Below are positions 5,098 through 31,111 of a stretch of DNA of 37,385 nucleotides, piece after piece. The DNA comes from a virus (taxonomy: Duplodnaviria; Heunggongvirae; Uroviricota; Caudoviricetes): IMG/VR virus record IMGVR_UViG_2651869691_000008, one strand, 5' to 3'. Every line of letters begins with the position of its first letter. The stretch's first letter is position 1. Position numbers and translations under genes: made by a program. The notes below the pieces were generated by a model that was not told where the DNA came from, made no database searches, and was given only the letters and a program-made list of their open reading frames with translations.

Positions 5098-5609
5098 TGG
5101 CTGTACCAAAACATCTTCGCTTTTTTACGCTGTTTGTGGATGGTGAAAACGAAGTGGGTAAGGTGACGTCCGTCACCCTGCCTAAACTGACGCGCAAAAC
5201 CGACAGCTATCGTGGTGGTGGCATGATGGGGGCGGTAAGTATTGATCTCGGTCTGGACGACTCCGCGCTTGATGCGAGTTTTGTTATGGGGGGAGCTGTT
5301 CGTGCGCTGTTCCTTAAATATGGCGGCACGATTGACGGCACGCTGCTGCGTTTTGCGGGTGAATACTACACCGATGCAGAAAGCGATCTGTATGAAATCG
5401 AGATGCGCGGACGTGTGACGGAAATTGATATGGGGGAAGCCAAACAGGGCGAAGCCACATCACACACTTACGCCATTAAAAACACCTACTACAAGCTGAG
5501 TGTTAACGATCGCCCGTTGTGGGAGATTGACCTGCTGAACTTCATTTACCGGAAGGACGGCAAGGACATTGTGCCCGATCGCATCCGTTCCGCGCTTGGG
5601 CTTGGCTGA
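5097..5609 (+). CDS. tail tube protein (P2 gpFII-like)
   Basis: 170-aa ORF; start overlaps the sheath stop (TGATG). Confidence 0.85.
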   Translation: MAVPKHLRFFTLFVDGENEVGKVTSVTLPKLTRKTDSYRGGGMMGAVSIDLGLDDSALDASFVMGGAVRALFLKYGGTIDGTLLRFAGEYYTDAESDLYEIEMRGRVTEIDMGEAKQGEATSHTYAIKNTYYKLSVNDRPLWEIDLLNFIYRKDGKDIVPDRIRSALGLG

Positions 5610-5663
5610 TAAGTAATATGCAGGCGGCGCAGTGCGTCGCCTCTGACTGAAAGGAGTTTCCTG

Positions 5664-6029
5664 ATGAAAGAGACGAAAAACATCGATACCGAAAACACGG
5701 TCGTTGCTGACACTGTGAAAGAAACCAGTGAGCGTGGCGTAAAACTTACCCAACCAATTGAGCGAGGCGGCGAAAAAATCACGTATGTGGAGATCACCGG
5801 AGCTATTGAGCAGGCTGGATCTCTGCGAGATTTGTCGCTGTCTGATGTGCTGAATCTGAAAGCGGAATCCATGTTTACGCTGCTGTCACGCGTGACATCA
5901 CCGCGACTGGATGAAGTGACGATCAAAAAAATGGCATCCCGTGACTTTATTCAGTTATGTGCGGTTGCCGTAAATTTTTTGAGCGGTGCGGACTCTGGCG
6001 GGAAGAACGAACAGGCGACGGAAGCCTGA
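5664..6029 (+). CDS. tail assembly chaperone (P2 gpE-like)
   Basis: 121-aa acidic ORF immediately upstream of the tape-measure gene. Confidence 0.75.
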   Translation: MKETKNIDTENTVVADTVKETSERGVKLTQPIERGGEKITYVEITGAIEQAGSLRDLSLSDVLNLKAESMFTLLSRVTSPRLDEVTIKKMASRDFIQLCAVAVNFLSGADSGGKNEQATEA

Positions 6030-6193
6030 TCACGATTGTGTGCTTTGAGCACATAGAAGACTTTGTGGCAGATATTGCCGTTATTTTTAACTGGTCGCCC
6101 GCCGAAATCTTCATGATGACGCCCGGCGAAGTGGTTAGCTGGCGTGAGCGGGCGGCACTTCGCAGCGGGAGTGCAGACAATGAAGACTCTTGA
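5664..6193 (+). CDS. gpE+E' fusion chaperone made by programmed -1 frameshift at the T-run 5975-5981
   Basis: slippery TTTTTTG at 5975-5981 in the E frame; the -1 frame continues ...FFERCGLWREERTGDGSLITIVCFEHIEDFVADIAVIFNWSP... to a stop at 6193, overlapping the T start. Confidence 0.6.
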
Positions 6194-25185: not shown

Positions 25186-25643
25186 CGCGCTTCGCTTGTC
25201 TGCTGCTTCGCCGGGGCATAAAAAATTTATGCCCCGACTCTCCAGCTCCTGTATCAGTCAGATAATTTCACGACGCTTTCCTGCTTATTGCCATCATCGA
25301 CGGTCAGACTCTTACGCAATCCCACTGCGCTGACTGCATGTTCTCGCCGCCTCAGTGCGATTTTGACGGCCTTACCTTTCACCCCATCAAACCAGAATCC
25401 CTCACGTATTTTTCACGCTCAGCGTGAGAAATACGGCCATTCTGTCGTGTCGCTGCGACATCGTTAAGGGAACGCTATTTACCCCCTGAAACGCGGGCTG
25501 TTCCCCCGTCACCTGCGCGCAGAAAAAACGCGTTTTTTTGTGCACGCACGGATCCTTGACGGATCCAGCCGCCACGGGGGTCGGAAGGGTAAAAAGTCGT
25601 TCAAAAAAATTGTGCAAATTTGTGCACTATTGTGCATTAAAAT

Positions 25644-25670
25644 AAACGCCCAGGAAGAGGGCGTTTTGGC
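25644..25670. terminator. bidirectional hairpin terminator closing the minus-strand cargo operon
   Basis: AAACGCCC-AGGAAGAG-GGGCGTTTT with T-runs on both strands. Confidence 0.5.
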
Positions 25671-25676
25671 TTATTT

Positions 25677-25937
25677 CTATAGCTTTGATGCAGGCTGGGC
25701 CAGATGCAAGGGTTGGACATACCAGCCTTTTGATAACCAACTCTCTGCAACCTCTTTACTCCTTGTTATTGCTGGTATTCCGATGCCGTTATTTACATGC
25801 ATCCATGCTACTGGCTCTGCTTCCAGTGATGCCAGTGCAATTTCATAAGCACGGCGCTCAATATTGTCTCGAACGTCCAAGCTGCCTATGCGCTCTTTGA
25901 TTTCTTTAATCAGTTCTTTGTCGGTGAAAGTTGTCAT
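25677..25937 (-). CDS. hypothetical protein (cargo operon gene 4)
   Basis: 86-aa ORF, GAGGA RBS, 3 nt after the upstream gene stop. Confidence 0.55.
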   Translation of the reverse strand: MTTFTDKELIKEIKERIGSLDVRDNIERRAYEIALASLEAEPVAWMHVNNGIGIPAITRSKEVAESWLSKGWYVQPLHLAQPASKL

Positions 25938-25940
25938 GTG

Positions 25941-26228
25941 TTAGTCCTCATCCACTTCAACGCCATCTTTCAGCGTGATGCCGTGCCAATCATCAGCCCA
26001 ACTGGTTAGCCCTGGCGCATCAATGCTAGGCATATAAACGCTTGCAGTGTGGTAGCCCTTATCGTTATCAATGCTGGCAACGTGCTCGCCGTTGTATGCG
26101 CTCAGCGTGTCCAGGACGCTATAAAACTTTCCTCCGGCTGCCCTGAAATCCTTTACAGCCTTCACAAGGCGATTCCACGCTTTTTCCTGTTCTGGCGTCA
26201 GGTCGATTAATTCCTGCAAAGTTGCCAT
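25941..26228 (-). CDS. hypothetical acidic protein (cargo operon gene 3)
   Basis: start refined to ATG at 26228 (AAGGAG RBS); MATLQELIDLTPEQEKAWNRL... Confidence 0.55.
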   Translation of the reverse strand: MATLQELIDLTPEQEKAWNRLVKAVKDFRAAGGKFYSVLDTLSAYNGEHVASIDNDKGYHTASVYMPSIDAPGLTSWADDWHGITLKDGVEVDED

Positions 26229-26229
26229 A

Positions 26230-26544
26230 TCACTCTCCTTTGATGTCAATGTTTACAGCTTGGCAAGCCTCTTTGAGCACCCAGTCAACAGCGTCTTTCC
26301 ATGCTCCGGTTTCGGTTGGCGGATTCTCACGTTTTACCAGTTCATAGAAACGTACTGCTCTAACCAGTCCATCTGACGGTTTTGCCTGTAGTACAGCCTG
26401 AGCTATACGGTATGCCTGGAGCATACGGGCGTCGTTGATATCCATTCCGAACGGAATTTCTGATGATCGTGATTCTGCATCTTCAAGCCTGGCAATTTCT
26501 TTACGTAAAAAGTATTTCAACTCTTGTTTTTGTTTTCTGTTCAT
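26230..26544 (-). CDS. hypothetical protein (cargo operon gene 2)
   Basis: 104-aa ORF; start ATG overlaps the upstream stop (ATGA). Confidence 0.55.
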
Positions 26545-26873
26545 GTGTTTTTTCCCTTTTTGTCTGCCACTTCTCTCCTGATAATTTCATTGCACAAATC
26601 CACGCACTCATTGCAGATGTAAACAGACGGTCCAGCAATCACCTTTGTGACTTCGTACTGGGATTTATTGCAGAAGCTGCAATAAATCGTTTCCTCGCCT
26701 GAAGTCCATGTTTTGCTGGTTTCGCCAGACATCAGTTGTTTGAGGTCTTTTTCACGACGAAGAACTATCTGGCCACATTCAGCTATTTTTTGGATGTTGA
26801 CATTTTCTTCTTTCGCCAGCGCTTCCATCCGCTCAATCAGTCGCTGCGCTTTTTCTCTGTCAATGTGTTGCAT
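26541..26873 (-). CDS. ClpX N-terminal zinc-binding-domain-like protein (stand-alone ZBD with N-terminal helical extension)
   Basis: C-terminal ...[41 protein letters not shown] closely matches the ClpX N-domain ([37 protein letters not shown] as I recall it); no AAA+ module. Confidence 0.7.
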
Positions 26874-26936
26874 TGTGTCCCCTTTGTTTGTGTTCCCGGA
26901 TTAAAGTCATCAGGGCGGATGCGCCCTGATGTTGTA

Positions 26937-27248
26937 TTATTCGGGAAATAACGCCCGGATATTTCCGGCCATCTGACTGGTTATCTGTGCGGTTGATACT
27001 GGCTGTGATGCGGGGCGTTCTGTCCTGGTTTGTGTCACTGATAACGCTTCATCATCAGCCCATGCAGCCAGTCGGTAAGCCTCTGCCGGATTCATTTTCA
27101 GAAGTGCCAGCCCGGCCAGAAAAGCCACACGTTGGCCGCTTTTGCGGGCTTCTGGTGTAAGGCTGTCCAGCCAGGCGCATGCTTCGCCTTCGTTCTTGAC
27201 GGCGGCGGGCTTCAGATAGAAACTTATTCGTCTGGTTGGTGTCGTCAT
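26937..27248 (-). CDS. ParR-like DNA-binding partner protein
   Basis: ATG at 27248 (AAGGAG RBS), 4 nt after the ParM-like stop; N-terminal RRISFYLKP...LDSLTPEARKSGQRVAFLAGLAL and C-terminal NIRALFPE resemble plasmid R1 ParR as I recall it. Confidence 0.55.
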   Translation of the reverse strand: MTTPTRRISFYLKPAAVKNEGEACAWLDSLTPEARKSGQRVAFLAGLALLKMNPAEAYRLAAWADDEALSVTQTRTERPASQPVSTAQITSQMAGNIRALFPE

Positions 27249-27252
27249 TGGT

Positions 27253-28212
27253 TTACTCCTTGTCCATTGCGTACAGCCCATTAACCAGAGCAAACTGTGG
27301 CACCCCGTCCGCGATGAAAGTCGCATTAACTCCGCAGGCTTCGCGGATAGCGGGTGCCACAATCTCCGCCCCGCCACCGACAACCATCACCCGCCCGTAA
27401 CCCGAAAAACCCGCCAGCGCGCGGATCACGCGTTGTTTCAGTGTTTCTTCCTTTTCACGAATAACCGCCATCAGGCTGGCGTAATGCGCGTCATTGTGGA
27501 TGTGCTGGCGCAGCCAGGCTTCATCATGGCGATGTTCGATAATGGTATTGGCGATGTGGTGACTGGTGCGCATACCGTTAGTGGCCATCACCGACAGTAC
27601 GGCATCGGCCATCAGAGAAACGCCTACGTGTGGGTCGCAAAACACCTGGCTGATACCTGCCAGTTGCCCCTGAACCTTTGCCACATCCAGCGTGGTTCCG
27701 CCCAAATCCACAATCAGCAGGGATTCAAACGGACTCATGTCAGCCAGTGCCTTAAAGCCAGCCGGAATGGATTCAGGCATAACCCGCACGTTACGGATAG
27801 TGAATGCTTCGCCGTTCTGGTACTCCACCGGGCGCATAACGTTCGCTTTTTTGCGGTTGATGTTGGGCATGTCCGGCTGTGCGTTTGTGTCGAAATATTC
27901 GCTCAGTGGCAGGGTGACAACCACATCCACTTCCTGTGGTGTGATGCCTGATTTGACCAGCGCGTGATGAATGGCAATGACATTCACATCGCTGTACTGG
28001 TATTGCGTGTCGGTCGTCTGGACAAAGCGATCGCTGACCGGATCAAAACCATAGCGCACGCCATCAAGCATGTAGTTCGCGGGCTGCGTGCCACCGAACG
28101 GCGCAGACCATTCCGACTTGAAGCTGTTCGGGCTGATGGCGTTGCGGCGTTCGCCGTTCTCAGTCCATGCCAGCTTGATGTTGGTGGAGCCGTCATCGAT
28201 ACAAATTTTCAT
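27253..28212 (-). CDS. ParM/StbA-family actin-like ATPase
   Basis: MKICIDDGSTNIKLAW...ISPNSF...YSDVNVIAIHHAL...MPESIPAG...LIVDLGGTTLDV...VMVVGGGAEI; strong resemblance to plasmid R1 ParM throughout. Confidence 0.85.
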   Translation of the reverse strand: MKICIDDGSTNIKLAWTENGERRNAISPNSFKSEWSAPFGGTQPANYMLDGVRYGFDPVSDRFVQTTDTQYQYSDVNVIAIHHALVKSGITPQEVDVVVTLPLSEYFDTNAQPDMPNINRKKANVMRPVEYQNGEAFTIRNVRVMPESIPAGFKALADMSPFESLLIVDLGGTTLDVAKVQGQLAGISQVFCDPHVGVSLMADAVLSVMATNGMRTSHHIANTIIEHRHDEAWLRQHIHNDAHYASLMAVIREKEETLKQRVIRALAGFSGYGRVMVVGGGAEIVAPAIREACGVNATFIADGVPQFALVNGLYAMDKE

Positions 28213-28246
28213 GTCGCTTTTCCTTATGTTGATTAATTAATCGTTT

Positions 28247-28339
28247 ACGGGATTCTGAAATCCCGTTTTTGCCTGTTTTATGCGCGCTTCATATATCGCG
28301 GCGCGTTTTTTGCTCATTTACGGGATTTGTGAATCCCGT
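28247..28339. repeat. two ~39-bp direct repeats each containing an 8-bp-arm palindrome (ACGGGATT-N4-AATCCCGT), 73 bp apart
   Basis: palindromes at 28247-28266 and 28320-28339; one in the A/parM intergenic region, one inside the last codons of A; candidate operator or centromere-like sites. Confidence 0.6.
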
Positions 28340-31111
28340 TTCTGTCTGTTTTTTGTTTCCACTGGTCAGGCCACCCCGCAGCAGGTCTGCTTTGCGGTGG
28401 GCGCGTTCAGTGGTTTCACTGATTCTCTGTGCGTGCTCTGCGTCGCGGATGGCGCGCAGCATGTCAGAAAGCACGGTAACGGGTGTTTTCATGGTGTTCT
28501 GGTCTTGCTGAAGTGTGGATGCCAGGCGTGCGGCGGCTTCGGGGTCTGATGCCCCCAGCTGTTCCAGATAGCTGGCGACCGGGTTATGGCGGATCTCCGT
28601 GCTGCTTACGCCGTGGTTACGGCTCAGGCGCTGCCAGAGCTGCGTGATCCGGCTGTCCGGTCGGGTATCCGGTTTGCGTACAATTTCAAATCCCTGCGGT
28701 GCAATGATGCTGCCGTCAACGTACAGACTGCCGCCCCGTAACAGGTGCTGCATCTGCTGTTCACCGATATGCAGGCCGAGAGATTCAGCAGACTCCCGCC
28801 ATTCTTTAGCGAGTAATTCGTGGTTATCAGGCAAAGGCCGCTGCTGTTTGCGGCTCTGTGTCCAGCTCTGCATTTCATCACGGCTGTTTTTTGCCTGTTT
28901 GTCACGAAGCGAACGCATCAGCGCCCGGCGTTCGTGCCGTTTCAGTGAGCGCATCCATTCGTTCACTTCAACGCCGTCAGGGAGCTGCGGCCACGGTGCT
29001 GGCCGTTCTTCCGGCTGTTCTGTCCCGTTGTTGTCTGTTTCCTGTACACGGGGACAGTTATTGCCACGAGTCCAAGGGGCGGCAGGGCCGCCCTGAAGGT
29101 CAAAACCATTTTCGCGGGCGCTGTCTTCCGCTTCCGGTTTGCGTCTTACCAGCTTCCAGTTATCCGGATGCGTGCACACACGGGAGGATTCCCCGATGAG
29201 TGGTGACCAGATCCCGTAAATCTGTACGCTCTGTTCGCCGTAATCGTTCAGCTCATCGGCGAGGTCGTAGGCGGTGCGAATCAGGTAGTCTTTGCGTGGA
29301 ACAAGTACGCCGCCCTGTTTCTCAATGTAGGTGGCAAAACATCCGGCATCAGCGGCAGCAAGAACCGCATCCATTGCGTCATCCTTCAGCCGTTGCGGGC
29401 CTTCCGGGTTGCGTGCCATCTGGCTGGCAAGGCGACGCAGTTCACGCCACACCTGACGGGAGGGGATGCCAAAGAACTGGAACTGGCGGACCCGGTGAAG
29501 GCGCGCCCAGCCAATGGCGCGTTCCACGCTCTCGGTCATTGATTTTCCGGTTTCGTGGTCAACGCGTGGTTTGCCTGTTTTCGGGTCGATGCCATCCACG
29601 GCGCGGCTGTCCAGGTTTTTTCCGATGTAGGTGGCGATGTAGCTGGTTGGCGTGCCTTTTGAGCCGTCGACATACTCCGCCTTAAAGCGCGGAGTAATAT
29701 CATCGCCCAGCTCGTGACGATCTTCCTGAATGGCAATATCGCGGGTGTGGGACACAATGGTGTCGATTTCTTCCGGATGAGCAAAGACCATCATATGCCA
29801 GTGCACGGTGCCGTCATGGTGAGGCTCCACCGTGCGGATGCCATACCAGCGCAGGCCGTCGCGGTTCAGTTTCTTGCGGACCGCCGCAAAAAACGTGTTA
29901 ACCAGGTAATCGCTGGAGTCGCGCATGGTGGCCCCGTTCCATTTGGGATTCGGATGACCGTTCTCTGTTGTAGCGTGGTATTTTGACGGGCAGGTGACAG
30001 TCAGAAACACCGCTTTGTCGCCACGGGCTTCGGCCAGAAGTTCCAGCCCCTTCATGGTGGCCATCATTTCTGCCTTACGGTGAACCGGGTTACTTACTCC
30101 CGCGTAATACACTGTCTTGAGATCAATCGTGAACCCGTCTTCGTTTTCCAGCATGAAACTTTTCAGGAAATCGCGTGTTTTCTCGCGCTGTGCGCGAAAC
30201 TCGCTTAACGCGTCCTGGCTCAGATAGGGCGATGTTTTTCTGGAAACCAGACAGGCGGCGCGGAGTTGTTCTTCTCTCCACTCGCAACGTAACAGCCACA
30301 GTTTGCGTTTCCACCATTCCGCACAGGTCAGGCGAAGGATTGCGCCCGGCAGCAGCTCCGTGTCCGGTTCGTTCCTCCGGTCTTTGTCTGTTGTCAGTGC
30401 GTCATAATGTGGAGGCATGGCGTGCAGGTGTAACGCCATGCGGGCCAGCATCTGATACGCCTTCAGCGTTACATCCATGGTCAGTTCGCCATCGGTCGCG
30501 CCAAAGCCATCGCAGAGTTTTTCGAAGGTGCTGCTGAACATCGCCGCCGTCATGGTGGCCAGCGTCTGTATCTGGTGTTTGTTGAGCTGCGGCAGGTAAA
30601 GCAAATCGTCCAGGCGTTCGCGTCCGGCAAGGGAGCGATAACCCTGTGTCAGCCAGCGGTGATCGGTGCGCTCCAGACGTTCGAATATTTTGCGCAGGTT
30701 TCCGCGCGCGTAGCGTTCAGCCTGCCAGCTCTTTTTGCCTTTCTGACGATCGGCTTCCTGTTTTTTGCGCAGGAAGGAGAGGTGGCGAATAAGCGGATCG
30801 CGCAGATAGGACGGCAGCAGGCGCAGCGAGGCCATGGCTTCATCCACCGCACCGCGTGCCTGTTTTCTGGCGTCTCCTGCCAGTGTGATGGTTTTGTCCT
30901 GTTTTTCCTGTGCGTCCAGGCTTTTATTAATCAGGTTGCCCAGCGGCGTTGCGGAGAACGCCGCATCAGCCATTTCCTGGCGGCGCTCGTTCTCTACCCG
31001 GTAGGCATCCAGCCAGGAGGAAAGCGCGGATTCAGGAGCGGGGATCCCCGTTCCTTCACGCCCCACTGCGTGGCGCGGTTGTTGCCAGTCCCTGATGTAC
31101 TCTGCCGTCAT
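28289..31111 (-). CDS. rolling-circle replication initiation protein (P2 gpA-like)
   Basis: 940 aa; DGTVHWHMMVF and YIATYIGKN motifs of the phiX174 A / P2 A family; longer than I expect for P2 A. Confidence 0.9.
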   Translation of the reverse strand: MTAEYIRDWQQPRHAVGREGTGIPAPESALSSWLDAYRVENERRQEMADAAFSATPLGNLINKSLDAQEKQDKTITLAGDARKQARGAVDEAMASLRLLPSYLRDPLIRHLSFLRKKQEADRQKGKKSWQAERYARGNLRKIFERLERTDHRWLTQGYRSLAGRERLDDLLYLPQLNKHQIQTLATMTAAMFSSTFEKLCDGFGATDGELTMDVTLKAYQMLARMALHLHAMPPHYDALTTDKDRRNEPDTELLPGAILRLTCAEWWKRKLWLLRCEWREEQLRAACLVSRKTSPYLSQDALSEFRAQREKTRDFLKSFMLENEDGFTIDLKTVYYAGVSNPVHRKAEMMATMKGLELLAEARGDKAVFLTVTCPSKYHATTENGHPNPKWNGATMRDSSDYLVNTFFAAVRKKLNRDGLRWYGIRTVEPHHDGTVHWHMMVFAHPEEIDTIVSHTRDIAIQEDRHELGDDITPRFKAEYVDGSKGTPTSYIATYIGKNLDSRAVDGIDPKTGKPRVDHETGKSMTESVERAIGWARLHRVRQFQFFGIPSRQVWRELRRLASQMARNPEGPQRLKDDAMDAVLAAADAGCFATYIEKQGGVLVPRKDYLIRTAYDLADELNDYGEQSVQIYGIWSPLIGESSRVCTHPDNWKLVRRKPEAEDSARENGFDLQGGPAAPWTRGNNCPRVQETDNNGTEQPEERPAPWPQLPDGVEVNEWMRSLKRHERRALMRSLRDKQAKNSRDEMQSWTQSRKQQRPLPDNHELLAKEWRESAESLGLHIGEQQMQHLLRGGSLYVDGSIIAPQGFEIVRKPDTRPDSRITQLWQRLSRNHGVSSTEIRHNPVASYLEQLGASDPEAAARLASTLQQDQNTMKTPVTVLSDMLRAIRDAEHAQRISETTERAHRKADLLRGGLTSGNKKQTETGFTNPVNEQKTRRDI

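Follow-up and report, generated by a model that had tools for sequence, protein, structure and literature searches.

The window analyzed here, a stretch of 37,385 nucleotides in total (IMG/VR record IMGVR_UViG_2651869691_000008), is derived from a P88-like Xuanwuvirus (Peduoviridae, P2-like) and raises the question why a phage encodes a close copy of the zinc-binding domain (ZBD) located at the N-terminus of the host protein ClpX in a small, free-standing protein. The open reading frame is located on the minus strand at 26541–26873, starts with ATG, encompasses 110 codons and is preceded by the Shine-Dalgarno sequence AAAGGGGA (26878–26885, minus strand, read from the sequence) placed 6 nt upstream of the start codon. 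Its assignment as a stand-alone ZBD protein is based on the list of open reading frames, on the Pfam family PF06689, on 98% identity to gp19 of phage P88 (NC_026014.1, 10195–10527) and on its membership in PHROG 6797, a family of unknown function.

Regarding the protein's C-terminal portion, the profile search resulted in a significant match to the ClpX-type C4 zinc finger (PF06689, zf-C4_ClpX), which covers residues 64–99 with E=8.2e-18 and a score of 64.5 bits compared to a gathering cutoff of 27. The domain as a whole was delimited to residues 62–101 (26571–26690, minus strand) by Pfam, BLASTP, phmmer, the family alignment and Foldseek, with C65, C68, C87 and C90 as ligands. In the earlier note, made from the letters of the sequence alone, it was stated that this part of the protein matches the ClpX ZBD almost residue for residue. 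This is essentially right but somewhat overstated: within the 39 core residues (63–101) 31 are identical to E. coli ClpX (79%), and BLASTP against E. coli ClpX, taken from a genome record, resulted in 33 identities over 53 residues (62%, E=1e-21). Moreover, a phmmer search against the PDB matched the ClpX ZBD entries 1OVX and 2DS5–2DS8 with E about 1e-19. An AlphaFold2 (AF2) model, for which ten family members served as input, reached a mean pLDDT of 81 and predicts helices at residues 6–23 and 27–48, a disordered linker at 53–59 and the ZBD at 62–101. In Foldseek the predicted ZBD superposes on the crystal structures 2DS5, 2DS6, 2DS7 and 2DS8 within 0.6–1.1 Å and on the NMR structure 1OVX within 1.7 Å, at an identity of 71–80%, so that the modeled treble-clef fold appears superposable on the solved ZBDs. 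The ligands Cys65, Cys68, Cys87 and Cys90 do not vary in any full-length homologue of the alignment or in any of the IMG/VR family members, and the ClpX pocket residues F16 and I46 correspond to F67, which is invariant in the family alignment, and to I97, which is either I or V. The protein stops nine residues past the ZBD and an AAA+ module is absent, as the earlier note had held: the NCBIfam ClpX equivalog models score only 49.9 (TIGR00382) and 48.6 bits compared to cutoffs of 370.75 and 359. A recurrent P88-type allele in IMG/VR (L032, L035, L038, L039, L041) replaces Y85 by Cys (PSVCICNEC), so that an additional, fifth cysteine lies two residues ahead of the zinc ligand C87, and several copies of the gene are truncated or frameshifted (P0010, P0015, P0018).

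What might a phage gain from a free copy of this domain? In ClpX, SspB, RssB, trigger factor and substrates like lambda O all dock onto the ZBD, for which the hydrophobic pocket around F16 and I46 is central (PMC7804408), and the ZBD binds short LKxh-type peptides. It was shown that the isolated E. coli ZBD added in trans inhibits RssB-mediated breakdown of sigma-S by ClpXP in vitro (PMC7226468). Since the phage ZBD keeps the pocket surface and since the host ZBD is inhibitory in vitro, a free ZBD acting as a competitive sink for ZBD ligands is plausible. The reading we favor, with a probability of roughly 0.45, is that the phage protein acts as a decoy that captures ligands relying on the N-domain of ClpX; while the presence of the ZBD is confirmed, this interpretation is plausible and has an in vitro precedent. 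The phage would produce a free-standing copy of the N-terminal docking domain, which would fold around zinc as the host domain does and dimerize, the N-terminal hairpin possibly adding avidity. The protein would then compete with ClpX for ligands docking onto the ZBD, i.e., the SspB tail, RssB and N-domain-dependent substrates of the lambda-O/MuA type. As an outcome, adaptor- and N-domain-dependent proteolysis by ClpXP would be selectively damped, and substrates recognized by the pore would be spared. Probably being transcribed with the early string (cox to A to parMR), the gene would act at or after the lytic switch, and the likely benefit would be a stabilization of phage proteins or a block of ClpXP-dependent host responses, e.g., antitoxin turnover. 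The binding partners, the dimerization, the timing of expression and the benefit to the phage are inferred. Two properties of the domain itself count against the decoy reading: owing to the very small size of the ZBD, much of its conservation could be due to structural constraint alone, and the charge-changing surface substitutions compared to ClpX (H22Y, R25T, D37N, E49R) could retarget its specificity.

A ClpX-like ZBD might also act on ClpX directly. The phage ZBD would heterodimerize with the N-domains of ClpX, thereby capping them and altering how the trimer of ZBD dimers is arranged on the hexamer. Residues A29–I47 of ClpX are nearly all identical in the phage protein, the exceptions being D37N and D45E, which suggests that the helix and the strands packing in the ZBD dimer are preserved. 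However, the ZBD is described as a constitutive dimer in the Pfam family description, and together with the very high local ZBD concentration in the hexamer this would disfavor an exchange with a free competitor. Heterodimerization with ClpX is therefore the less likely branch compared to the decoy, and we regard it as improbable.

The genomic context bears on when the protein might be produced and with whom it might cooperate. The ZBD gene resides on the same strand as gpA, which encodes the 940 aa replication endonuclease (28289–31111, minus strand; Pfam Phage_GPA, E=5e-131), on its downstream side. Along the minus strand the order is gpA, parM, parR, a hairpin, the ZBD gene, three small genes, a terminator-like hairpin and the cos/portal region. 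The gene parM (StbA) encodes an actin-like segregation ATPase (27253–28212, minus strand; Pfam, E=6e-82), and the parR/stbB-like gene a partition adaptor (Plasmid_stab_B; 26937–27248, minus strand; Pfam, E=4e-24, and P88 annotation). The placement of the ZBD gene between A and cos given previously holds in that the gene is inside the interval between gpA and portal/cos, but parM and parR intervene between gpA and the ZBD gene. A 10-bp G+C-rich hairpin found in the terminator scan lies between parR and the ZBD gene (26908–26931) and represents the edge of the conserved parMR block, and the homology to Xuanwuviruses lacking the ZBD gene stops there, the match to P884B11 beginning at window position 26911 (position 1412 of the query). 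The ParM/ParR plasmid-segregation pair is complete (26937–28212) and located downstream of gpA in Xuanwuvirus, a genus of integrating P2-like prophages. Close to where gpA ends at its 3′ side there are two near-identical inverted repeats, ACGGGATT..AATCCCGT, of which the first is located in the gap between gpA and parM (28247–28266) and the second inside the gpA coding sequence (28320–28339); these might be parC-like sites or terminators.

Downstream of the ZBD gene follow orf104 (26230–26544, minus strand), a gene of unknown function that is kin to lambdoid early accessory genes according to the list of open reading frames and the PHROG comparison, a small gene of 95 aa counted from ATG (25941–26228, minus strand; PHROG 2821, function unknown) and a small gene of 86 aa (25677–25937, minus strand) that is similar to Ea22-like proteins in their N-terminal part (PHROGs 5117, 660 and 60). 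A bidirectional terminator-like hairpin (25644–25666, terminator scan) closes this leftward gene string before the cos/portal region. The coupling of the ZBD gene to these three small genes proposed earlier agrees with the overlap of its stop with the start of orf104 (ATGA) and with the subsequent gaps of only 1 nt and 3 nt, but the three genes are not conserved together with the ZBD gene. The region 25677–26544 is a mosaic of pieces of early accessory genes of lambdoid and Stx phages (Ea22-like and DUF551 regions), and thousands of E. coli prophages as well as some phage-plasmids match its DNA at 83–97% identity. In P88, the whole gene string is oriented as the early cox-to-A operon. No sigma-70-like promoter was found in 25200–28400, and therefore co-transcription of the ZBD gene with the upstream genes is the simplest assumption; at the same time the timing of expression is thereby inferred only, which counts against the decoy reading.

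The distribution of the gene shows to which extent it belongs to this phage group. Among 5426 complete E. coli genomes, 112 carry the gene, nearly always on the chromosome, and this low frequency is a further point against the decoy reading. Among related prophages its presence varies within the interval between gpA and gpQ, and in related Xuanwuviruses parMR and the hairpin are kept and other genes follow beyond the hairpin, which confirms that the gpA-portal interval is variable. A scan of IMG/VR resulted in more divergent members with 28–72% identity, which are encoded in P2-like contigs with a gpA of 31–52% identity. These contigs mostly lack parMR; in one of them (L072), a ParR-like match of 40% identity is located just upstream of the ZBD gene. 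In all of these P2-like contigs the ZBD gene is on the same strand as gpA, downstream of gpA and upstream of the portal gene, and the Salmonella group, with 43% identity, has the same arrangement of gpA, ZBD gene and portal gene. Moreover, the identity of the ZBD protein drops roughly in parallel with that of gpA. Owing to this constant position and to the identity falling in step with gpA, it is more appropriate to regard the ZBD gene as semi-conserved and resident in the distal early region of Peduoviridae than as a purely sporadic cargo. The earlier assignment as variable cargo of the old/tin hotspot is therefore only partly appropriate: the gene is located in the gpA-portal interval that Rousset 2022 calls the old/tin hotspot, but it holds the same position downstream of gpA in P2-like phages that are very divergent. 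D6-like phage-plasmids (75–120 kb) furthermore carry homologues of about 50% identity, which reside between ref/DUF4406 and the gene of the ppp phosphoesterase, in an array of small early accessory genes. Contigs from the gut named ‘Bacteriophage sp.’ (H35, H52) were considered as sources of distant full-length homologues and rejected, as they carry bacterial tig-clpP-clpX operons; MT839851.1 and MT835503.1, ‘Bacteriophage sp.’ records from human faeces, carry such operons and probably reflect contamination by bacteria or mis-binning.

Next to the ZBD gene, the neighbors differ. Elsewhere, it is followed in some loci by an XF1762-family gene and in others by a Phd/Doc pair, by a set containing YafO or by no recognizable gene, and an obligate partner gene was rejected due to these downstream genes differing from locus to locus. 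A functional link to ParMR was rejected as well, since many P2-like lineages with the ZBD gene lack parMR and many Xuanwuviruses with parMR lack the ZBD gene. With no conserved partner encoded in cis, the protein most likely acts on a host target. Type II toxin-antitoxin modules adjoin the ZBD gene in several arrangements, namely Phd/Doc in two unrelated lineages, HicAB and the YafO toxin (L007 4079–4830; L043/L045/L046/L048; L072 3825–4630; L074/L075/L080 about 5405–6042; L014–L019 6697–7077). The Phd protein of P1 is a known ClpXP substrate. This adjacency may be functional or may merely reflect a hotspot rich in toxin-antitoxin modules.

The same neighborhood suggests that the decoy chemistry might be used in the lysogen, i.e., against incoming phages or rival prophages that need ClpX, e.g., for Mu replication or for the removal of repressor fragments. 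Such a function in prophage exclusion would fit to the location of the gene between gpA and gpQ, an interval in which anti-phage systems abound (PMC9122126), to the frequent adjacency of type II toxin-antitoxin modules (Phd/Doc, HicAB, YafO) and to the requirement of ClpX for prophage induction in S. aureus (PMC10584840). However, PADLOC gives no match for the ZBD protein, the orientation of the gene gives no support to a defense role in the lysogen, the D6-type homologues reside in an early accessory array downstream of ref and Rousset 2022 does not discuss the gene as a defense candidate, making this use doubtful.

The N-terminal half of the protein is specific for the family. Residues 1–48 (26730–26873, minus strand) form a predicted helical hairpin with helices at 6–23 and 27–48, in line with the helical N-terminal extension proposed before, and residues 49–61 (26691–26729, minus strand) form a flexible linker of low confidence, with pLDDT below 50 at residues 53–59 and a length that varies among lineages in the alignment. 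A phmmer search of the hairpin against 1.84 billion representative proteins resulted in only 11 matches, i.e., nine close relatives or fragments, one D6-type member and one protein of 1212 aa with six repeated matches. No relatives of the hairpin were found by phmmer in the PDB, nor in Pfam at E-values up to 10. The hairpin evolves fast, yet E17, E23 and L38 are invariant in the family alignment. The sequence LKQL at residues 44–47 was considered as an internal XB-like ‘LKxh’ motif and was rejected, because it is not conserved in homologues. The conserved hairpin implies a second activity, which counts against the decoy reading.

Two domains joined by a flexible linker, as predicted by the model, resemble tethering adaptors, suggesting that the hairpin might bind a specific target and the ZBD might tether it to ClpXP to promote its degradation. 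This is an unlikely function, considering that known adaptors use short peptide motifs to dock onto the ZBD, that docking of a ZBD onto ClpX has no known route except heterodimerization and that no target is conserved in cis.

The two halves of the protein differ in their evolution. For the decoy speaks that the ZBDs of three lineages are each 74–90% identical to ClpX despite N-domains that are only 23–40% identical to one another; by type, the ZBD identity to ClpX is 79% for P88, 77% for D6, 74% for pEc1079 and 90% for Salmonella. Applying the Nei-Gojobori method, the synonymous sites are saturated between the phage ZBD and the host clpX (Sd 23.5 over 23.2 sites) at a dN of 0.08–0.25, so that the ClpX-like sequence is ancient and held by selection; a recent capture from the host was rejected due to this saturation. 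Between the P88-type and the Salmonella-type, the ZBD shows a dN/dS of about 0.10, whereas the dN of the N-domain is 0.82, and the N-domain evolves approximately six times faster than the ZBD. As an observation apart from this, the N-domains of pEc1079_2 (L004 5950–6312) and D6 (L003 5980–6300) are 98% identical and their ZBDs 79%; over its first half, the ZBD of pEc1079 does not differ from the P88 type, resulting in a chimeric ZBD behind a D6-type N-domain, which points to recombination inside the gene between the phage-plasmid and the P2-like lineages.

The main rival of the decoy is that the ZBD serves merely as a zinc-stabilized scaffold for dimerization or protein binding, to which the hairpin gives specificity, and that the protein regulates a phage process, e.g., replication by gpA, partition or the control of lysis-lysogeny, with ClpXP being uninvolved. 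The invariant E17, E23 and L38 show conservation of the N-domain within the family, and the position near gpA is kept across divergent P2-like phages, both being in agreement with a scaffold. Moreover, in bacteria the ZBD is fused to HTH-like modules (a 136-aa family) and to sigma-70 modules (a Tolypothrix sigma factor), in which it may act as dimerization module only; this likewise counts against the decoy. Against the scaffold speaks however that the ZBD stays 74–90% identical to ClpX, ligand pocket included, over saturated synonymous divergence, and that the N-domain evolves roughly six times faster than the ZBD. Furthermore, the D6-like phage-plasmids have no gpA-type replication gene beside the ZBD gene. 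Taken together, the scaffold is a possible explanation that we consider as rather unlikely, and the decoy remains the preferred reading.

Part of these observations was on record before. RefSeq names the protein ‘ClpX C4-type zinc finger protein’ or, wrongly, ‘carboxylate--amine ligase’; the wrong name is frequent in GenBank and RefSeq (P88 gp19, D6 gp034, many GenBank plasmids), and newer PGAP runs label the family ‘ClpX C4-type zinc finger protein’. In Rousset 2022 (PMC9122126), supplementary file 6 lists loci of the type ‘StbA + Plasmid_stab_B + zf-C4_ClpX + hypothetical...’ between gpA and gpQ, which are not mentioned in the main text. Full-text literature searches did not reveal a described function of the ZBD protein, so that the absence of a described phage function of this kind, as put forward earlier, holds for the literature searched, but the open reading frame did not go unnoticed, as the RefSeq name, PHROG 6797 and the table of Rousset 2022 show. 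As a summary, the existence of the domain is already known. New are the same-strand position just downstream of gpA in divergent P2-like lineages, the occurrence in D6-like phage-plasmids, the saturated synonymous sites and the recurrence of unrelated ZBD-only proteins.

Regarding this recurrence, independent small proteins consisting of a ZBD with different appendages were found in eight viral contigs (L076, L077, L078, L079, L083, L085, L088, L097). That such proteins turn up independently in the early or accessory parts of other temperate phages speaks for the decoy. In the four loci scanned, the neighbors include an antirepressor and an AlpA-type regulator in L078, DNA methyltransferases in L079 and L097, a LexA-like DNA-binding protein in L088 and an integrase in L097. 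Jumbo phages encode full-length ClpX instead of a stand-alone ZBD. In unrelated temperate phages, stand-alone ZBD genes repeatedly have a DNA adenine methyltransferase gene (D12 class, MT-A70, Dam) upstream of them, at a distance of one or two genes; in L071, L074, L075 and L080 it is located between gpA and the ZBD gene, and further cases are L079 and L097. The Klebsiella phage ST846-OXA48phi9.2 carries an unannotated ZBD-only open reading frame of 62–73 aa between cII and the replication-initiator gene (L021 3501–3722; MK416022.1 13044–13265), the record MK416022.1 having a hypothetical open reading frame annotated on the opposite strand instead. Its location beside an O-like gene is worth noting, as lambda O is the classic ZBD-dependent ClpXP substrate. 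In the T4-like Caulobacter phage Cr30, a ZBD-only open reading frame is mis-called (L022 1980–2219), the annotated gp170 covering only part of it; in Caulobacter, cell-cycle adaptors dock on the ClpX N-domain, with CpdR being cited (PMC7804408).

As a tentative generalization, less probable than the decoy reading for the P88-type protein itself, free ClpX N-domain decoys might be a general but as yet unrecognized way by which unrelated temperate phage groups rewire the substrate choice of the host ClpXP, shutting off adaptor- and N-domain-dependent degradation and sparing the bulk ssrA quality control. The groups concerned would be Peduoviridae, D6-like phage-plasmids, a lambdoid phage of Klebsiella and a T4-like phage of Caulobacter, and the P2-like family would represent an ancient, position-conserved member of the early replication module. 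RpoS, SOS components, replication initiators (lambda O, MuA) and antitoxins are under the control of ClpXP, as is the removal of repressor fragments. If true, this would be the first example of a phage copying the docking domain of a protease to edit its substrate list, it would offer a ready genetic tool separating N-domain-dependent from pore-dependent ClpXP functions and it could explain how some prophages stabilize their own proteins or blunt abortive responses based on toxin-antitoxin systems.

In the literature searched, such a device, i.e., a phage copy of the ClpX docking domain, is undescribed, and two kinds that are already known come close to it: proteins with which phages modulate AAA+ proteases of the host, and N-domain decoys that stand alone, e.g., ClpC2. 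Among the former are T4 PinA and T7 Gp4.5, which act on Lon, lambda RexB, which acts on ClpP-dependent proteolysis, and SPO1 Gp53, which acts on ClpC. They share with the proposed decoy that a phage protein reprograms the regulated proteolysis of the host; none is known to be copied from a domain of a host protease, and their mechanisms and targets differ from those of the phage ZBD. The bacterial fusions of the ZBD to HTH modules (136-aa family, P0032/P0071) or sigma factors likewise have a ClpX-type ZBD outside ClpX, but there the ZBD is N-terminal and attached to a DNA-binding module, and these proteins are not phage-borne and are probably transcription factors. The anti-adaptors IraD, IraM, IraP and IraL are small proteins that block the delivery from adaptor to ClpX and thereby stabilize a ClpXP substrate (PMC4045071; PMC7226468), and on RssB the binding sites of IraD and of the ZBD overlap (PMC7226468); in contrast to the phage protein, they are unrelated in sequence, specific for RssB and host-encoded stress regulators. 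Mycobacterial ClpC2 is a free-standing partial homologue of ClpC1 that binds the ligand of the full enzyme and acts as a decoy, whereas it is encoded by a chromosomal host gene, sequesters an antibiotic, has another fold and belongs to another Clp system (PMC10030653). The closest relative is the N-terminal ZBD of E. coli ClpX itself (1OVX, 2DS5–2DS8), with which the phage domain shares the Pfam family, the CxxC-18-CxxC arrangement, 79% core identity, the F16/I46 pocket and a predicted fold within approximately 1 Å. In contrast to the ClpX domain, it is not joined to an AAA+ ring, is located C-terminally in a small protein behind a predicted helical hairpin and carries eight core substitutions, four of which alter the charge or the aromatic character.
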